Source: a virus
Lineage: Duplodnaviria; Caudoviricetes
Virus record (IMG/VR): IMGVR_UViG_3300044657_000837
Location: 1 to 33,670 of that record
Reading direction: 5' to 3' (one strand)
Length of the DNA stretch: 33,670 nucleotides
The position numbers and the translations under genes were made by a program. Within the stretch, counting starts at the first letter, position 1; every line of letters begins with the position of its first letter. The notes below the pieces were generated by a model that made no database searches, was not told the origin of the DNA, and saw only the letters and a program-made list of their open reading frames with translations. This document shows, piece after piece, positions 4,390-26,466 of the stretch.

Positions 4390-5882
4390 TGGCCAACAGA
4401 TTCGCCTCCGCGCTTCGCCGTCTGTTTCGCAGAAAGCCGGCCGCAGACAATCATCAGCGAGCATTCGCCGCCGCCAAGCTGAACCGGCTGACCGCAAGCT
4501 GGCGCCTCACCGCTGAAACGATCGATGACGAGATCCGCAACGACCTGGATGCCCTTCGCCATCGATCGCGCACGCTTGAGGGCGATAACGACTTTGCGCG
4601 CCGCTATCTCGATCTGGTCGAAACCAACATCATCGGAGAAGCCGCCCCGCGCCTCGTGTCGCTGGTCGACAACGCTCCCGGCAACCCGGACACCGGCGCC
4701 CGCGCTGCGATCGTCCGCGCCTGGGCCGAATGGGGCCGGACCGGAACCTGCGAAGTTTCCGGCCAGTACTCGTGGACAGGGCTTTGCCAGGCCATCGTGC
4801 GCGCTACGGCCCGCGATGGCGAAGCGCTGGTCTACCGCCGCTACGGCCGCGCCGCCGGCAACAGATTCGGCTACTCGCTCCAGTTGCTCGACGTCGACCG
4901 CCTCGCCACATGGAAAAACCAACCCGCCGACAGCACCAAGAATGCCATCGTCGCCGGCGTCGAAGTCGACAGCATGGGCCGGCCGCTCGCGTACCACTTC
5001 AACACCGGGCAGCGCTCGACCGCCAATGACCGCGCAACCGACCGGATCGGCGCCGATGCCGTTTTGCATCGATTCGTCCTGCAGCGCCCGGAGCAGCGCC
5101 GCGGCATTCCGTGGTGCCATGCCGCCATGCTCAGCATGTACTACGCCGGCGAGTTCGCCTTGTCGGCATTGCTGGCAGCCAAACAAGGCGCCGACACCCT
5201 CGGCTTTTTTGTGTCACCGGACGGCACCCCGCCACCGATCGGCGAAGAGGCATCAGACGAAGCCGGCGCCCGCGTTGCCACCAGTGCGCCCGGAACATGG
5301 GAAACAATCCCGGTCGGCTACGATATCCGCTCGATCGATTCCAAATACCCGAACGAAGTTTTTGCTCCTTTCCTGAAATCCGCCTATCAGCGCATGGCCA
5401 GCGGGCTGCCAGGATCAAGCTACCCGGAACTGTGCAACGACTACGAAGCGGTCAACTTCTCGTCCATCCGCGCCGCCGTGCTATCGGGCCGTGACGAATG
5501 GCGAAAGCGTCAGCAGTGGTTTGCCACCGCATGGCTTGAACCCGTCTTTGCCGACTGGCTGAAAATGTCCCTTGCATCAGGCGCGATCCTGCTCGACAAC
5601 GGCAGCCGGTTGCCGATCGAGAAGGGCGACAAGTTCGCGCCGCACCTCTGGCAGTTCCGCGGCTGGGCCTGGGTTGATCCTCTCAAGGACATGCAAGCCG
5701 CCCGCGAAGCGCTTGACCTCCGCATTACATCACGCACACGCCTTGCCAGCGAAGCCGGTCGCGACATCGAAGAGATTTTTGACGAGCAGCAGACGGAAAT
5801 TGCCCTGGCTGCGAAATACGGCATTGATCTGACACAACCGCAGGCGCCAGCCGCCATCACTGAATCGAAGGACCAGCCATGA
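4386..5882 (+). CDS. Portal protein, lambda gpB family
   Basis: LRHRSRTLEGDNDFARRY, RPEQRRGIPW, DYEAVNFSSIRA and GWAWVDPLKD motifs; start may be ATG 4389. Confidence 0.95.
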   Translation: MMANRFASALRRLFRRKPAADNHQRAFAAAKLNRLTASWRLTAETIDDEIRNDLDALRHRSRTLEGDNDFARRYLDLVETNIIGEAAPRLVSLVDNAPGNPDTGARAAIVRAWAEWGRTGTCEVSGQYSWTGLCQAIVRATARDGEALVYRRYGRAAGNRFGYSLQLLDVDRLATWKNQPADSTKNAIVAGVEVDSMGRPLAYHFNTGQRSTANDRATDRIGADAVLHRFVLQRPEQRRGIPWCHAAMLSMYYAGEFALSALLAAKQGADTLGFFVSPDGTPPPIGEEASDEAGARVATSAPGTWETIPVGYDIRSIDSKYPNEVFAPFLKSAYQRMASGLPGSSYPELCNDYEAVNFSSIRAAVLSGRDEWRKRQQWFATAWLEPVFADWLKMSLASGAILLDNGSRLPIEKGDKFAPHLWQFRGWAWVDPLKDMQAAREALDLRITSRTRLASEAGRDIEEIFDEQQTEIALAAKYGIDLTQPQAPAAITESKDQP

Positions 5883-7312
5883 CCCAAACAGTAACCATCA
5901 CTCAGCCCGTGCGCGTCTCCGGCAGCGTCCTTGCGGCCGGAACGACTCAGACACTTGCGCGCGACATTGCCGCCGACCTTGTGGCGCGAGGGTGCGCAAC
6001 GCCTGTCGGAGTCCCGGCCTGGCAGTCAACGGCGCTTTTAGTCTCAGCTCAATCAAATCCGATTAGCGGAATTGTGCAAATTCCAGCGTTATATGATGCT
6101 GGGTTTACAAGAGGCATAGAAACTTTATCAAAAATCGGGGTTCGTGTTGGGCTGATAGGCGACTCGATTACTTTCACCAACCTGTCTAGCGGAGTTGCCA
6201 ATACGTTGTCTTATTATGACAATGGATATTTTGGATGGGCTCTAGCATTTCTTGGTATTCATGCCAACGCAGTTTATAACGGTGGGGTTGGGGGAGAAGA
6301 GACCAATCAATTTTCAGATCAGCTTGACGCGGCAATTGCCGCTGGAAGCGAAGTAATATTTTATCTAGGCGGAACCAACAATGACGACTCCGTCGACATG
6401 ATACGACTTGCGTTTGCTGATTACCAGAGCGCATACCAAGCGTGCCGAAGTAAAGGCGTGTTCTTTTTTGCGCTTACGCCAACTCCAAACAACATCGATA
6501 CAGCCGAAAAGGCTTTAAGATATAGATCTCTGGCATCAATGATTATGGCATCGTTCGCCAACAAGCCAGACTCACACGCTGCCGATACACAAGCATCGGT
6601 CTATGACTTCTCAGCAAACAATTGGAAAAATAATTATTCTTATGACGGCGTTCACCCAGGCAGCTTAGGGGCCTATTACATGGGGAAGGCGATCTATAAT
6701 GCTACCGTCGCCAGAATGCCAAAACCAAAAAATCCAATCCTGGCATCCTCGAATGACGATTTTGTAGCAACAGATGCCGGGGCCAATCAGATTCTAGCCA
6801 ACCCAATGCTGACTGGGACTAGTGGCGCTAAAAGCACTGGATGCTCCGGTAATGTTGCGTCATCATGGTCCGCCGTATGCACTGGAGGGTGTACAGCTGT
6901 TTTTTCCAAAACAACGGACGCAGATGGTTTGGGCGAGGTGCAAACTATTGTGGCTACTGCGTCTGCCGCTGGCACTGTGCTATTTTATCAAGCCGTCGCG
7001 CCCGGGAAACTCAAGGCAGGAAAATCCATTGTTGGCGCATGTGAGATAGAAATAGAGTCCGGCCCGACAGGAATGGACAATATTAAACTTGAAGTTTTCC
7101 ACGACGCATCGCAAAAAACTAATTGGGGAAACAAAACGGGAAATACAACAGTTGTTTTTGATGATGGGTTTACGATAACTCCAGAAACAAGGCCTGATGC
7201 CTATGTCTTATCCGGAACAAATGGATCTGGCCAGTATACAATAACACTCGGTTTCAAAACTGCAGGCGAGGTTACTGCGAACATACGGTATCCATCACTA
7301 AGAAATGGATAG
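5879..7312 (+). CDS. SGNH/GDSL hydrolase-domain virion-associated protein with beta-rich C-terminal domain
   Basis: Block I IGDSIT, block II NGGVGG, block III GGTNND, block V DGVHP; GC clearly lower than the flanks from ~6030 on. Confidence 0.85.
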   Translation: MTQTVTITQPVRVSGSVLAAGTTQTLARDIAADLVARGCATPVGVPAWQSTALLVSAQSNPISGIVQIPALYDAGFTRGIETLSKIGVRVGLIGDSITFTNLSSGVANTLSYYDNGYFGWALAFLGIHANAVYNGGVGGEETNQFSDQLDAAIAAGSEVIFYLGGTNNDDSVDMIRLAFADYQSAYQACRSKGVFFFALTPTPNNIDTAEKALRYRSLASMIMASFANKPDSHAADTQASVYDFSANNWKNNYSYDGVHPGSLGAYYMGKAIYNATVARMPKPKNPILASSNDDFVATDAGANQILANPMLTGTSGAKSTGCSGNVASSWSAVCTGGCTAVFSKTTDADGLGEVQTIVATASAAGTVLFYQAVAPGKLKAGKSIVGACEIEIESGPTGMDNIKLEVFHDASQKTNWGNKTGNTTVVFDDGFTITPETRPDAYVLSGTNGSGQYTITLGFKTAGEVTANIRYPSLRNG

Positions 7313-19767: not shown

Positions 19768-20271
19768 TCAGGAAGCAGCGACCATACTTTCAATATGCTC
19801 AATCAGCTGCCATCCGCTTATGTACGGCACTTGCTTACCTGTCGTGGTTGGCATGGTGAAATAACCGATCTTCCCTTCTCTAACCCACTGCCTAACCAGC
19901 CGTGAGCTCACATCGAGAGCATTTGCGGCGCCGTGCAGTGAGTAGACGGGGTTAAAGTAAACGATTCTCGCCGTCAGGTCTTTCTTGGCTTGCGTTGTCG
20001 CCATAAGCGCATCGTCTGCCTTGCGCTGCGCTTCCGCTGCCGCTTTTTTGTGGTGTATGTTGTGCATCGGCCGGTCTTGAATGATGGCGCTACGCTCAGC
20101 TGCGAGCGCTTCTTCTCGACTGTCGAAGTGCTCAATGGTCACTCGATCAATTGAATTGAACCACTCCGAGTTCTCGGCGTGCTGACCTAGGCGCTGCAGC
20201 GCACTCAAAGAAACACCAACGTACAAAAGCTCCCCTACGTTGTTGAAGTGCCTGTAAAGACTAGTCCTCAT
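19768..20271 (-). CDS. GIY-YIG nuclease domain fused to excisionase-like HTH
   Basis: LYRHFN..GELLYVGVS....RLGQH and REEALAAE..AI..P.HN; C-terminal YSLHGAANALDVSSRLVRQWVREGKI. Confidence 0.8.
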   Translation of the reverse strand: MRTSLYRHFNNVGELLYVGVSLSALQRLGQHAENSEWFNSIDRVTIEHFDSREEALAAERSAIIQDRPMHNIHHKKAAAEAQRKADDALMATTQAKKDLTARIVYFNPVYSLHGAANALDVSSRLVRQWVREGKIGYFTMPTTTGKQVPYISGWQLIEHIESMVAAS

Positions 20272-23296: not shown

Positions 23297-23905
23297 TCAA
23301 AGTATGTCGTCGTGTTTTTCTGCATCGGCGGCTTTGGCCACCTTCGACCATCCGCCGTGCAAATGCCTGATGCTCGCTTTCTGGTCCGCGTCGAGATTTC
23401 CAAGCCACGCCGAGTACATCGCGACACCATCGCTTGCCGCGGCATTGCCGGCAGACACGAGGCCGGCGTCAGGCGTTGGTGTGGCGTCTGCCGGCGCAGG
23501 CTTGGCCGGAGTCTCGACGGCCAGCGGCTTGACGGTGTAAGCCTTCTTGGTGCCTCGCGTGGCCGTCAGTGCCATGACTAGATCCTTGCTTATGTGCGAC
23601 ATGGCGCCGATCCTGATACCTCCGACAGCGGAGCCACCGAAGCGCACGGATTCATCAAGGTAAAGCGTCAAGCTGCGACCGGCATACTTCGCCCCGTCTG
23701 CCCCCCATGCTTTGACGAGAACGCGGCGCATGGATTTACACGGCTTCCATGGCTTTCCTTCGTCGTTTTGAAAGCTGATGGCGACAGGCTGATCCTCGGC
23801 AACCAGCTTGACGCCGGTAATCGTGATCGTGCGCGGGCCGCCGATCAGGTCGTCTGCGTTGAGTTGATCGCTTTTCGGGGCGATGGTTTTCGACAGGTCT
23901 AACAT
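23297..23905 (-). CDS. Conserved phage protein, candidate ssDNA-binding/annealing partner of the exonuclease
   Basis: AGGAGG RBS; KSDQLNADDL, KPCKSMRRVL, GGIRI..MSHI; overlaps the exonuclease gene. Confidence 0.75.
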   Translation of the reverse strand: MLDLSKTIAPKSDQLNADDLIGGPRTITITGVKLVAEDQPVAISFQNDEGKPWKPCKSMRRVLVKAWGADGAKYAGRSLTLYLDESVRFGGSAVGGIRIGAMSHISKDLVMALTATRGTKKAYTVKPLAVETPAKPAPADATPTPDAGLVSAGNAAASDGVAMYSAWLGNLDADQKASIRHLHGGWSKVAKAADAEKHDDIL

Positions 23906-24576
23906 GTGATTTCCTCCTGGATGGTCCTGACTGTGTTGATGACGACCGGCTGGCGATCTAGCCAGTCCGCGTATTTCATGCGAGCAACGTTCAGTCGGTG
24001 CTCAAAATCTGCTGCAGCGGCGATGATTGCCTCCTGGTAACGCGCATCCGGAAAAACGCGCTTGACGTACATCGGCAGGCCGGCGCAGTACGAGACAAAA
24101 TCCAGCCACTCGCGTCCGGTCACGAGCAAACCCGTCTGGATTTGCAGCATGTATTCCTCGGGCACTCTGTCTGCCAGGATCGTTTCGACTTGGAATTTCT
24201 GCCGGCGAGACTTGCACTCGATCAGGCCGTCGTCGTCGACAAGGCCGTCTGGCGAGTATCCGATGACGAATCCGTGATCGTCGTTCGTCACGAACCCGCA
24301 CTCAGTGACCGTCGCGAAGTGTTCGGCGTACCTGATGCGCGCCTCGATCTCGTCGTCGTATCCGCGCAGCATGTCGTCGCTGATGTAGCGCGGCTCGGTG
24401 TAGCCGGTGATACGCTGTCCGAGAAGCTCGAACAGGTGCGCGCGCTCTTTGTCATTGCTGGCCGGCTTGAGCGTCGGCGTTACGATCAGCTTCATTTCGC
24501 TGGCAGTCAGAATTCCGCAGCGCATGGCTAGCCATTCTTCAGTTCCTTGCTCGACGTCGTAGTGATAGCAAATCAT
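23899..24576 (-). CDS. YqaJ/lambda-exonuclease family recombination nuclease
   Basis: QGTEEWLAMR.G.LTAS, YSPDGLV, IECK, YMLQIQTGL, DFVSY; GGAGG RBS before ATG 24576. Confidence 0.92.
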   Translation of the reverse strand: MICYHYDVEQGTEEWLAMRCGILTASEMKLIVTPTLKPASNDKERAHLFELLGQRITGYTEPRYISDDMLRGYDDEIEARIRYAEHFATVTECGFVTNDDHGFVIGYSPDGLVDDDGLIECKSRRQKFQVETILADRVPEEYMLQIQTGLLVTGREWLDFVSYCAGLPMYVKRVFPDARYQEAIIAAAADFEHRLNVARMKYADWLDRQPVVINTVRTIQEEITC

Positions 24577-24600
24577 GCTGATATTCCTCCAGTTGATGCC

Positions 24601-24700
24601 GCAAAACAAATTTCACGGGGGACCAGCCCCATCCGGTTTCTCCGGCGCACGGATAATCCCGTTTCGGTTTGCGCCTGATCGCCCCTGAAATTTGCTCTGC
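24601..24700 (-). ncRNA. Candidate structured cis-RNA upstream of exonuclease gene
   Basis: ~25-nt imperfect inverted repeat closing internal hairpins; several mismatches become G-U pairs on the minus strand. Confidence 0.5.
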
Positions 24701-25177: not shown

Positions 25178-25285
25178 TTAGCTGATCAACGCGAAGAAAA
25201 GGAACGCAGCCAGAACGGACGACAGCCCTAGAATGGCCGCGCAAATCAGAACCTCAGTGACGCTGCTGGGGAAGTCGTCATTCAC
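25178..25285 (-). CDS. Small membrane peptide (35 aa)
   Basis: GTGA overlap with upstream ORF; hydrophobic VLICAAILGLSSVLAAFLFFALI. Confidence 0.5.
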   Translation of the reverse strand: MNDDFPSSVTEVLICAAILGLSSVLAAFLFFALIS

Positions 25286-25437
25286 AGCAGGCCTCCGATC
25301 ATGTCGGCCAGCAGCCACACAAAAACTAGCGCTGTCGCAACCAGCGCCGCCTTGTCGCCGACGGTCGGGCCGTCGCTCGGGGCGACGATCTGGCGCAGCT
25401 GGTCGTCGGTAAGTTTGATGCTGTTGATCGTCTTCAC
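25282..25437 (-). CDS. Small membrane peptide (51 aa), first leftward gene
   Basis: AGGAG RBS before GTG 25437; C-terminal hydrophobic helix. Confidence 0.6.
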   Translation of the reverse strand: MKTINSIKLTDDQLRQIVAPSDGPTVGDKAALVATALVFVWLLADMIGGLL

Positions 25438-25449
25438 TGTCAAGTCTCC

Positions 25450-26003
25450 TGTAGTTGATCGTTGCCCGTCTCTCCGGGCCGTCACGGTGCTGCTGCACGC
25501 ATATCCCCTCGCTTGCCGCGCGGCTTGAGGGCTTGACCTTCCTGCGCTCCTGGATCACCGTTTCCGATCAGTTCTTTGGTGCTGAAATTCGTTGCCGGTA
25601 TCTGCCGGCTTTCGCGGTTCTTTCGTCTGTGTCCGTTACGCCAGTCCGTTGTGGCCGCTGGTCGCCAATCGGTATCAGCGCAGCGCTCGAGATTTCCCGC
25701 CTCGTCGCCATTCCTTTAGTTGCGCCTCGCATCCCCGGCGTACAGGTGCTGCGCTGATTGTTGATGCGCCTCGTCCTTGATCGGCTAGTCGTTGTTCCGG
25801 CCCGTGCCGTCAGTGCAATCTTTCATGCCTGAGTCTTTCGCCAGTGGCTATCGGCTCAACCAAGGTGCGCGTCGAAGCGCATCAACAATCTCGACTCGGC
25901 AAGCAGGCCGGCTATAGTCAAGGCCGGCCTTGTGTTCGGCGGGGCTGTACAAAAACTTTCCGCCGTACCCGACCGTTTGGGGTGATGCGCTTGCTGAGTC
26001 GAT
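25450..26003 (-). ncRNA. Long structured non-coding leader of the leftward transcript
   Basis: No credible ORF; three abutting 11-18 bp closing stems and a fourth multi-stem domain, starting at the predicted TSS. Confidence 0.6.
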
Positions 26004-26009
26004 GAGTGC

Positions 26010-26038
26010 ACTTTATAGGCGCGTTTTGCTGTTGTCAA
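26010..26038 (-). promoter_or_regulatory. Leftward sigma70 promoter (PL-like)
   Basis: Minus strand TTGACA-17 nt-TAAAGT. Confidence 0.8.
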
Positions 26039-26064: not shown

Positions 26065-26093
26065 TTGACAACCATGAAATTAGCCGGTACGAT
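26065..26093 (+). promoter_or_regulatory. Rightward sigma70 promoter (PR-like)
   Basis: TTGACA-17 nt-TACGAT, 8 nt before the cro ATG. Confidence 0.85.
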
Positions 26094-26101
26094 TCGCAGC
26101 T

Positions 26102-26308
26102 ATGAACAACGTTAGACACATCCGGCAGACTCTAGGTCTGTCACAAGACGCACTCGCTGAAGCCCTTGGTATGACTCAAGGCAGTGTGTCGCAGTACGAG
26201 CTTGGCAGTGACATTCCACCAAGGGTGGCTCGTAAACTGATAGACGTTGCGGCCGTCCGAGGCATTGAGATTTCCTTCGACGACATTTACACATCGGAAG
26301 CCGCATGA
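26102..26308 (+). CDS. cro: Cro-like XRE-family HTH regulator
   Basis: 68 aa; IRQTLGLSQDALAEALGMTQGSVSQYELG; no peptidase domain. Confidence 0.88.
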   Translation: MNNVRHIRQTLGLSQDALAEALGMTQGSVSQYELGSDIPPRVARKLIDVAAVRGIEISFDDIYTSEAA

Positions 26309-26394
26309 GCACCGGACACAACGCGCCAGGCGTGCCGACCGTCTTCGCGCTGGTCGTGACCATCCTTCTGCTGACCTTGGCGCTGTCGCTATGA
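26305..26394 (+). CDS. Small hydrophobic peptide (29 aa)
   Basis: ATGA overlap with cro; MSTGHNAPGVPTVFALVVTILLLTLALSL. Confidence 0.45.
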   Translation: MSTGHNAPGVPTVFALVVTILLLTLALSL

Positions 26395-26438
26395 TCTCCT
26401 CCTCCCGCGCTGCCACCTCCCACCAAAGCGCGGGTTTC

Positions 26439-26466
26439 GCTGGCCCTTCGGGGCCGGCTTTTTTTT
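26439..26466 (+). terminator. Intrinsic terminator (tR1-like)
   Basis: GCTGGCCC-TTCG-GGGCCGGC stem-loop followed by T8. Confidence 0.85.

Follow-up and report, generated by a model that had tools for sequence, protein, structure and literature searches.

Genome setting of the leader

The window, by which we mean the whole stretch of DNA that was analysed, is the 33,670-base whole virus record IMGVR_UViG_3300044657_000837, which is 97% complete and belongs to a lambda-like tailed phage; the sequencing runs that hold this phage are mostly labelled wastewater or activated sludge. Head and tail genes occupy the left part of the genome, which also carries a leftward recombination operon (exonuclease at 23899-24609) and a rightward block of cro, helicase and primase genes. 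Two early promoters stand back to back, and the leftward one is followed by a leader of about 550 bases, running from 26003 to 25450 on the minus strand, in which RNA modules succeed one another in the order D1-D2c-D3-E-T-D4-T. From cro leftwards, the features are:

26102..26308, plus strand: Cro-like HTH gene, divergent from the leader, with no cI between cro and PL
26065-26093, plus strand: PR-like promoter TTGACA-17-TACGAT ahead of cro, back to back with the leftward promoter
26010..26038, minus strand: PL-type sigma-70-like promoter TTGACA-17-TAAAGT, predicted +1 at 26003
25890..26003, minus strand: D1, a four-way-junction RNA
25756..25890, minus strand: D2 (type D2c), a variable second cassette with an 18-bp clamp and a 9-bp inner stem
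25674..25758, minus strand: D3, a widespread cassette with an 11-13 bp clamp and a conserved GCGGGAA loop
25594..25663, minus strand: E module and first T hairpin, between D3 and D4, with three helices and an invariant CGAAAG loop
25484..25561, minus strand: D4 core, outer stem ACGGTG/CACCGT and inner stem CCCTC/GAGGG
25464..25479, minus strand: second T hairpin GCCCG-GAGAGA-CGGGC, directly before the first RBS
25282..25450, minus strand: first RBS AGGAG (25450-25446) and first small ORF (GTG 25437, 51 aa)

A single HTH_3 gene of this 97%-complete genome, cro itself, scored over the cut-off, and none lies between cro and PL, in agreement with the sequence-only reading, which had noted the lack of a CI gene. 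The 51-aa first ORF has a homologous ORF in two related loci (L006 and L007) and matched no family. Elsewhere in the window, a GDSL lipase/acylhydrolase gene of low GC content (about 47%; 5879-7312, plus strand) sits moron-like with portal and capsid genes on either side, and a GIY-YIG endonuclease (19768-20271, minus strand) marks the end of the leftward operon. Downstream of cro, beyond a 29-aa ORF, a hairpin carrying CUCCUCC tracts that resemble an anti-SD is accompanied by a strong terminator (26391-26466, plus strand), and this element is possibly an sRNA; similar hairpin-plus-terminator elements in L153 and L196 reached 35.1 and 28.6 bits against RF02278, the Betaproteobacteria toxic sRNA (cut-off 50), a sub-cut-off resemblance that gives a weak hint of a betaproteobacterial host.

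Folding, coding potential and transcription

When folded as a whole, the minus-strand leader reached -210.4 kcal/mol (z -3.13, with 1/100 shuffles equally good), and since the plus strand also scored low (z -2.60) in this two-strand check, which had been proposed beforehand, energy alone cannot choose the strand. Other strand signals are mixed, G-U and A-C cells numbering 83 vs 41 in D1 and 5 vs 12 in E, and the D1 fold is more stable on the plus strand than on the minus strand. D3, E and D4 each folded in isolation no better than shuffles (z -0.8 to -1.1), and their support is therefore comparative.

The earlier statement that no credible ORF covers the leader holds: its short ORFs have no PHROG match, and the D1 lengths of 46 copies are distributed 17/12/17 across the three frames. 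Because the ORFs lack a family match and the indels between homologues fall in all frames, the leader is not a decayed gene. The comparison with Rfam that had been suggested gave 0 matches of its covariance models to the leader at E up to 10, and among 20 relative loci nothing rose above threshold, the 14 sub-threshold matches including one that overlaps cassettes at E 0.35. Resemblances to twister, pistol, glmS, ZTP and boxB found no support in Rfam and were discarded, as was a tRNA or tmRNA identity, ARAGORN having called 0 genes in 27 relative loci and the window itself being covered by Rfam.

The leader region holds one minus-strand promoter-like site, at its head, and none inside; no minus-strand terminator-like site was found within 25450-26003. 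D1 begins 7 nt past the -10 box (26010), at the predicted TSS, as had been proposed, and judging from these signals the leader would be transcribed from +1 at 26003 as the first part of the early operon. Four public RNA runs were available as contigs only, with DNA-like pieces; depth in X3 was highest over D1-D2 (755 vs 27-406 in the other bins), a peak that decides nothing, because contig depth cannot rank regions and an X8 contig spans the divergent promoter gap.

Homologues and the D1 junction

The first relatives, found through exonuclease-anchored loci, show 96% and about 70% identity. A pattern placed on the 5' part of D1 picked out 17 stretches of viral, 64 of metagenome and 2 of genome sequence; the 209 sequences examined gave 106 pattern matches, 57 of them distinct, from which 10 that had neither promoter nor closing stem were dropped as chance and 47, the window included, were kept. 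These 47 copies carry the P1 closing strand, and nearly all lie at +1 of a sigma-70-type promoter opposite cro, with a TTG -35 box 34-36 nt upstream of D1 in 46/47 and a strict -35/-10 pair in 36/47; neither the promoter nor the P1 closing strand was part of the search pattern.

A second pattern, ATCACCC..CGGTCGGGYAC, brought no further members, and a pattern scan of GTDB gave one true match, in a MAG contig. By the D1 model, the window and each of 4/4 whole records contain a single copy, and an out-of-sample copy scores 84.6 bits; a sample of 151 genomes from one bacterial phylum, with no positive control among them, gave no match to the model. Searches by blastn returned solely EBPR podovirus 1 and short T-hairpin matches among phages, 7 short chance-like matches among plasmids and none in E. 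coli genomes. EBPR podovirus 1 carries a divergent D1 variant (29 bits, E about 1e-4), which sits after two ORFs and not at +1, and also module E. The end of that record (L237 35880-36122 and 1-720) seems to be joined to its start through a repeat gene, and the phage has a PL-like promoter with a different short leader and no cI.

In the D1 alignment (A1; 46 rows, the truncated L190 being left out), four helices surround one junction, the whole of D1 measuring 101-120 nt, with P1 joining the 5' and 3' ends and P2, P3 and P4 completing the fold, with GCAUCMC and CACAA as conserved single strands. Identity to the window falls to 48% among homologues. The proposed pairs are formed in 90.5% of 1,324 cells, against 81.2% when shuffled and at most 43.7% when slid, and 13/29 pairs show two-sided changes; these counts should not be read as probabilities, given the relatedness of the rows and the several columns that the search pattern had fixed. 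The closing stem is irregular, and in the window 13/14 of its positions pair (25891-25904 with 25989-26002), as the sequence-only reading had it; the 8-bp hairpin at 25905-25930 is likewise present. In several phages, L130 and L150 among them, D1 alone makes up the whole leader.

Modules downstream of D1

For D2, both the 18-bp stem with one U-G on the minus strand and the inner stem CCTTGGTTG/CGATCAAGG with its two G-U pairs are in the sequence as reported. Relatives carry other cassette types at this position, the window's type being present in 5/42 leaders, and only one divergent copy, L184, is available, with compensatory changes in its clamp.

D3 occurs in 32/42 leaders by regex, and its stem pairs at 12/13 positions, again as reported. 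Counted on a MAFFT alignment, 50.8% of the D3 cells were paired, less than the 56% obtained with a slide of +2, and the structure was not supported; we attribute this low count to misregistration of that alignment and therefore used a per-sequence helix test. Two crossing helices were then each found in 18/20 distinct rows, in several sequence versions, against 11/238 and 72/288 in swap controls, and by this comparison the D3 core is likely an H-type pseudoknot. Module E is present in 27/42 leaders by regex, with two-sided changes in 8/16 pairs and 89.2% of cells paired vs 81.0% when shuffled; homologous leaders, for which a check of covariation had been proposed, show two-sided changes in both D1 and E and several versions of the D3 helices. 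Of the domains in the leader, the sequence-only reading had recognized D1 to D4 and missed E plus T at 25594-25663.

The D4 domain had been drawn at 25456-25570, and the stems listed for it are in the sequence; it resolves into the core at 25484-25561 plus a recurrent terminal hairpin, whereas its TGATCG/CGATCA stem is out of register in relatives. Four distinct copies of D4 are available, and in L193 the inner stem is altered on both sides. The T hairpin recurs in 25/42 leaders (regex). In an intergenic gap of the cultured Ralstonia phages GP4 and Eline it occurs twice, and a single copy precedes an RBS in the Sinorhizobium phage phiM9 (loci L221 2890-3035, L222 2900-3030 and L223 2001-2039), with no D1 at those places.

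Shuffling of cassettes and their clamps

Among the 42 leaders with at least 600 nt, 25 module orders were counted downstream of D1 (with 12 regex-defined types, a few matches being spurious), and the number of cassettes per leader ranges from one to six or more, while the general order D1-variable-D3-E-T mostly persists. In L144, L128 and L214/L215, inserted ORFs separate D1 from the remaining cassettes, and among relatives one core can be found in different clamps and one clamp around different cores. A complement between D1 and D3 in the window's lineage is, by eye, not kept in other lineages. Judged by these comparisons, the leader is a modular array of non-coding RNA cassettes, whose folds are kept by compensatory change and which are exchanged between phages.

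Two cassette types, one in L008, L109, L182 and L193 and the other in L175 and L177, share the motifs AAGCCU, GUCCGGA and AGGCA in different order (by eye) and are possibly permuted forms of one fold. The second cassette of L010 (3844-3955), with a clamp common to L154, L173 and L176, contains a hairpin resembling a T arm, after which come an acceptor-like strand and CCACCA; no tRNA is called there by ARAGORN, and the cassette is a possible RNase P substrate or tRNA mimic.

The closing stems of neighbouring modules abut or overlap by 1-6 nt, and neighbouring clamps could therefore stack. Collapsed by hand into 12 families, the long clamps measure 13-25 bp, 17-18 bp in 8/12, and are unrelated in sequence. 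The sequence WGNNCW, which we take to be an RNase III motif, occurs in 7/12 long clamps where shuffles give 2.5 (p 0.004). Among 48 motifs of the same form it ranks first, in a test made after the stems had been seen; it is absent within the trimmed arm from 5/12 long clamps, and the D3 clamps are not enriched (1/7). It resembles the set of distal, middle and proximal boxes described for E. coli RNase III (PMC1540722). As a sign of RNase III processing, this enrichment in the clamp sequences would count as modest support.

Possible functions of the leader

The reading that we favour, to which we give a little less than an even chance, is that the leader is a processed polycistronic precursor of accessory RNAs, cut by RNase III in the clamps and releasing units that act in trans. 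The predicted leftward early operon would be headed by the cassette array, which would be transcribed first; host RNase III would then cut at the long clamp stems and free individual structured RNAs, the 17-25 bp clamps being processing stems of the kind present in T7 early mRNA or the dicBF transcript. Once freed, the units would be RNA counterparts of accessory early genes, acting in trans early in infection. With conserved bases placed in junctions and with hypervariable loops, D1 and D3 look less like base-pairing sRNAs than like compact folds that bind protein, as decoys or ligands of a host factor, and the short T hairpin would likely supply the shared homology for cassette swapping.

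The off-+1 position of the D1 variant in EBPR podovirus 1, the ORF insertions and the exchange of cores and clamps all count for such a precursor. Against it count the leaders that consist of D1 only, the irregular closing stem of D1, the mixed strand signals, the clamps that lack WGNNCW and the fact that the cassettes have no terminator or U-tail of the kind found in Hfq sRNAs; D1 at +1 in nearly all 47 pattern-found copies suits a role in cis. The substrates of E. coli RNase III, typically two helical turns, are longer than most of the clamps, which also counts against the precursor, and stacked short helices can serve as substrates of the enzyme (PMC1540722). The sequence-only reading had offered an array of small RNAs released by processing, and the modular, stem-clamped, covarying and shuffled anatomy fits the array, whereas the processing itself is something we infer. 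The first predicted expression product of these phages is a shuffled set of RNAs and not of proteins, and should the units prove to be effectors set free by processing, phage leaders that lack genes would represent an overlooked pool of host-takeover or counter-defence RNAs.

A bolder version, which we regard as rather unlikely, would make the leader an array of RNA morons, a dozen or more interchangeable stem-clamped effectors that are expressed first, processed, and each decoy a different host protein or defence system. If it were true, these phages would tune host takeover by exchanging RNA cassettes instead of genes.

Unlikely as well, in our estimate, is a leader acting in cis, in which D1, helped by D3 and E, would bind RNA polymerase or a Nus/Rho factor and suppress termination or decay of the leftward operon in the manner of HK022 put, an RNA that binds the beta' zinc-binding domain and suppresses termination in cis. 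The putL site lies just downstream of PL, as described for that phage (PMC9378689), and the position of D1 at the predicted +1 is of the same kind; moreover, no N-like gene is annotated among the leftward ORFs, and minus-strand terminator-like sites lie downstream at 25348, 24632, 24129 and 21700. Terminator-like sites, however, are not clearly above chance (13 vs 8.0 +/- 3.2), D1 is present once per record in the window and in 4/4 whole records even though it is the PR side that has the strongest terminator (26439-26466), a four-way junction of about 110 nt has little in common with the two stem-loops of about 70 nt in put, and the interchangeable downstream cassettes are left unexplained. 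If D1 does act in cis, it would be a protein-free element of elongation control unlike put.

Clusters of hammerhead and twister ribozymes, as well as RAGATH motifs, occur in phage-like regions, and the cassettes might likewise be clustered self-cleaving ribozymes, or motifs resembling ribozymes, of undescribed kinds that break up the early transcript, which we consider improbable. The compactness of the junction and pseudoknot cores, whose unpaired bases are invariant, the small ORFs interleaved with cassettes, and the two cassette types that share short motifs in different order would agree with it. Yet the Rfam ribozyme models match neither the window nor any of the 20 loci from relatives, even with E allowed up to 5-10; the long clamps would keep cleaved halves joined, and back-to-back copies with nothing between them would have no clear purpose.

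We see still less prospect for one large multi-domain RNA, a scaffold like GOLLD or ROOL with D1, D3 and E as a fixed core and other domains optional. Its domains abut, could stack and largely keep their order, but ORFs of hundreds of bases intervene between domains, D1-only leaders exist, and the D1-D3 complement is confined to the window's lineage (by eye). Very doubtful, too, is the view that the modules are mainly recombination or expression scaffolds of the PeSL kind, or stability hairpins, with no separate effector function: the T hairpin does recur before RBSs in unrelated phages, and PeSL cassettes are described as driving shuffling in T4-type phages (PMC2839356), but the units here are without promoters and terminators of their own, and invariant unpaired junction bases imply specific ligands.

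Loss of cI and the question of RNA immunity

A repressor-like gene lies between cro and PL in 7/47 members, some of the others having too little upstream DNA to tell; HTH domains were identified in L007, L104, L107, L149, L150 and L207 and an S24 domain in L130. In three Pfam-confirmed pairs (L007/L008, L149/L153 and L107/L134), the member without cI matches its partner colinearly to either side of a clean deletion and has the same promoter and D1, which indicates that the leader predates the loss of cI. The pair L182/L184 was not counted, because the L182 ORF at the cI position is unconfirmed as a repressor; with it, clean deletion of the gene at this position recurs in four pairs, which suggests recurrent conversion to lytic-only forms. 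In L130, HicA/HicB-like ORFs (by eye; 1139-1690) lie between the S24-type cI and PL, and L006, from a record that is 68% complete (G003), has a tyrosine integrase, yet no cI between cro and PL.

In 21-22 members, neither the 700 nt downstream nor the cro transcript contains more complement to the conserved strands of D1 than expected, the longest complements to the two strands measuring 5.5 vs 5.55 and 4.6 vs 4.8 nt. The sequence-only reading had also considered an RNA-based early switch, and an RNA immunity or lysis-lysogeny switch replacing CI, like P4 CI RNA or P1 c4, would suit a window without cI and the integrase-bearing G003, but we reject it as scarcely credible, given the coexistence of leader and cI-like genes, the clean deletions with the leader retained, the lack of antisense excess, the lack of a c4 match in Rfam, and the finding of no tyrosine integrase in the window or its relative G001 (both 97-100% complete).

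Comparison with known systems

The P4 CI RNA is known to be processed by RNase P. The leader resembles it and P1 c4 (for c4, PMC12197685) as a phage RNA of several stems for which processing from an early leader is proposed, and it differs in that no complementary targets were found, no Rfam family matches and cI coexists. PeSL elements are short shared elements of an early hyperplastic region that undergoes modular shuffling, and to that extent are alike; as described, however, a PeSL consists of a promoter and a terminator hairpin, whereas here there is one promoter and promoterless RNA folds are the shuffled cargo (PMC2839356). HK022 putL and putR resemble the leader as structured RNA right after PL in a lambdoid phage, and no N-like gene was recognized here, but put is described as two stem-loops in about 70 nt that have a twin behind PR, while D1 has about 110 nt, forms a four-way junction, is single-copy and is followed by variable cassettes (PMC9378689).

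Closer in arrangement is lambda LPR1/PreS, a phage sRNA that derives from the early left operon and, in the lytic cycle, works in trans on the host; according to its description it is a single terminator-derived Hfq sRNA with a seed and without a cassette array (10.1101/2024.10.31.621285). DicF, too, is a non-coding RNA among small ORFs in a repressor-controlled, PL-type polycistronic transcript, and RNase III processing is what we propose here; as it is described, DicF is a single base-pairing sRNA of the Hfq type, in contrast to about a dozen interchangeable stem-clamped junction and pseudoknot folds without terminator tails.

A literature search found no description of D1, D3, E or other leader motifs, and six short leader motifs are absent from three supplement files of a collection of 10,000 candidate viral RNAs (PMC10690425), other files of which may list them. 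What is new here is the RNA folds, whereas their arrangement extends the known processed non-coding RNAs of phage early operons. At least three uncatalogued folds, the D1 four-way junction, the D3 pseudoknot and E, have comparative support, and as cassettes of 70-135 nt each they are easy to transcribe and test.
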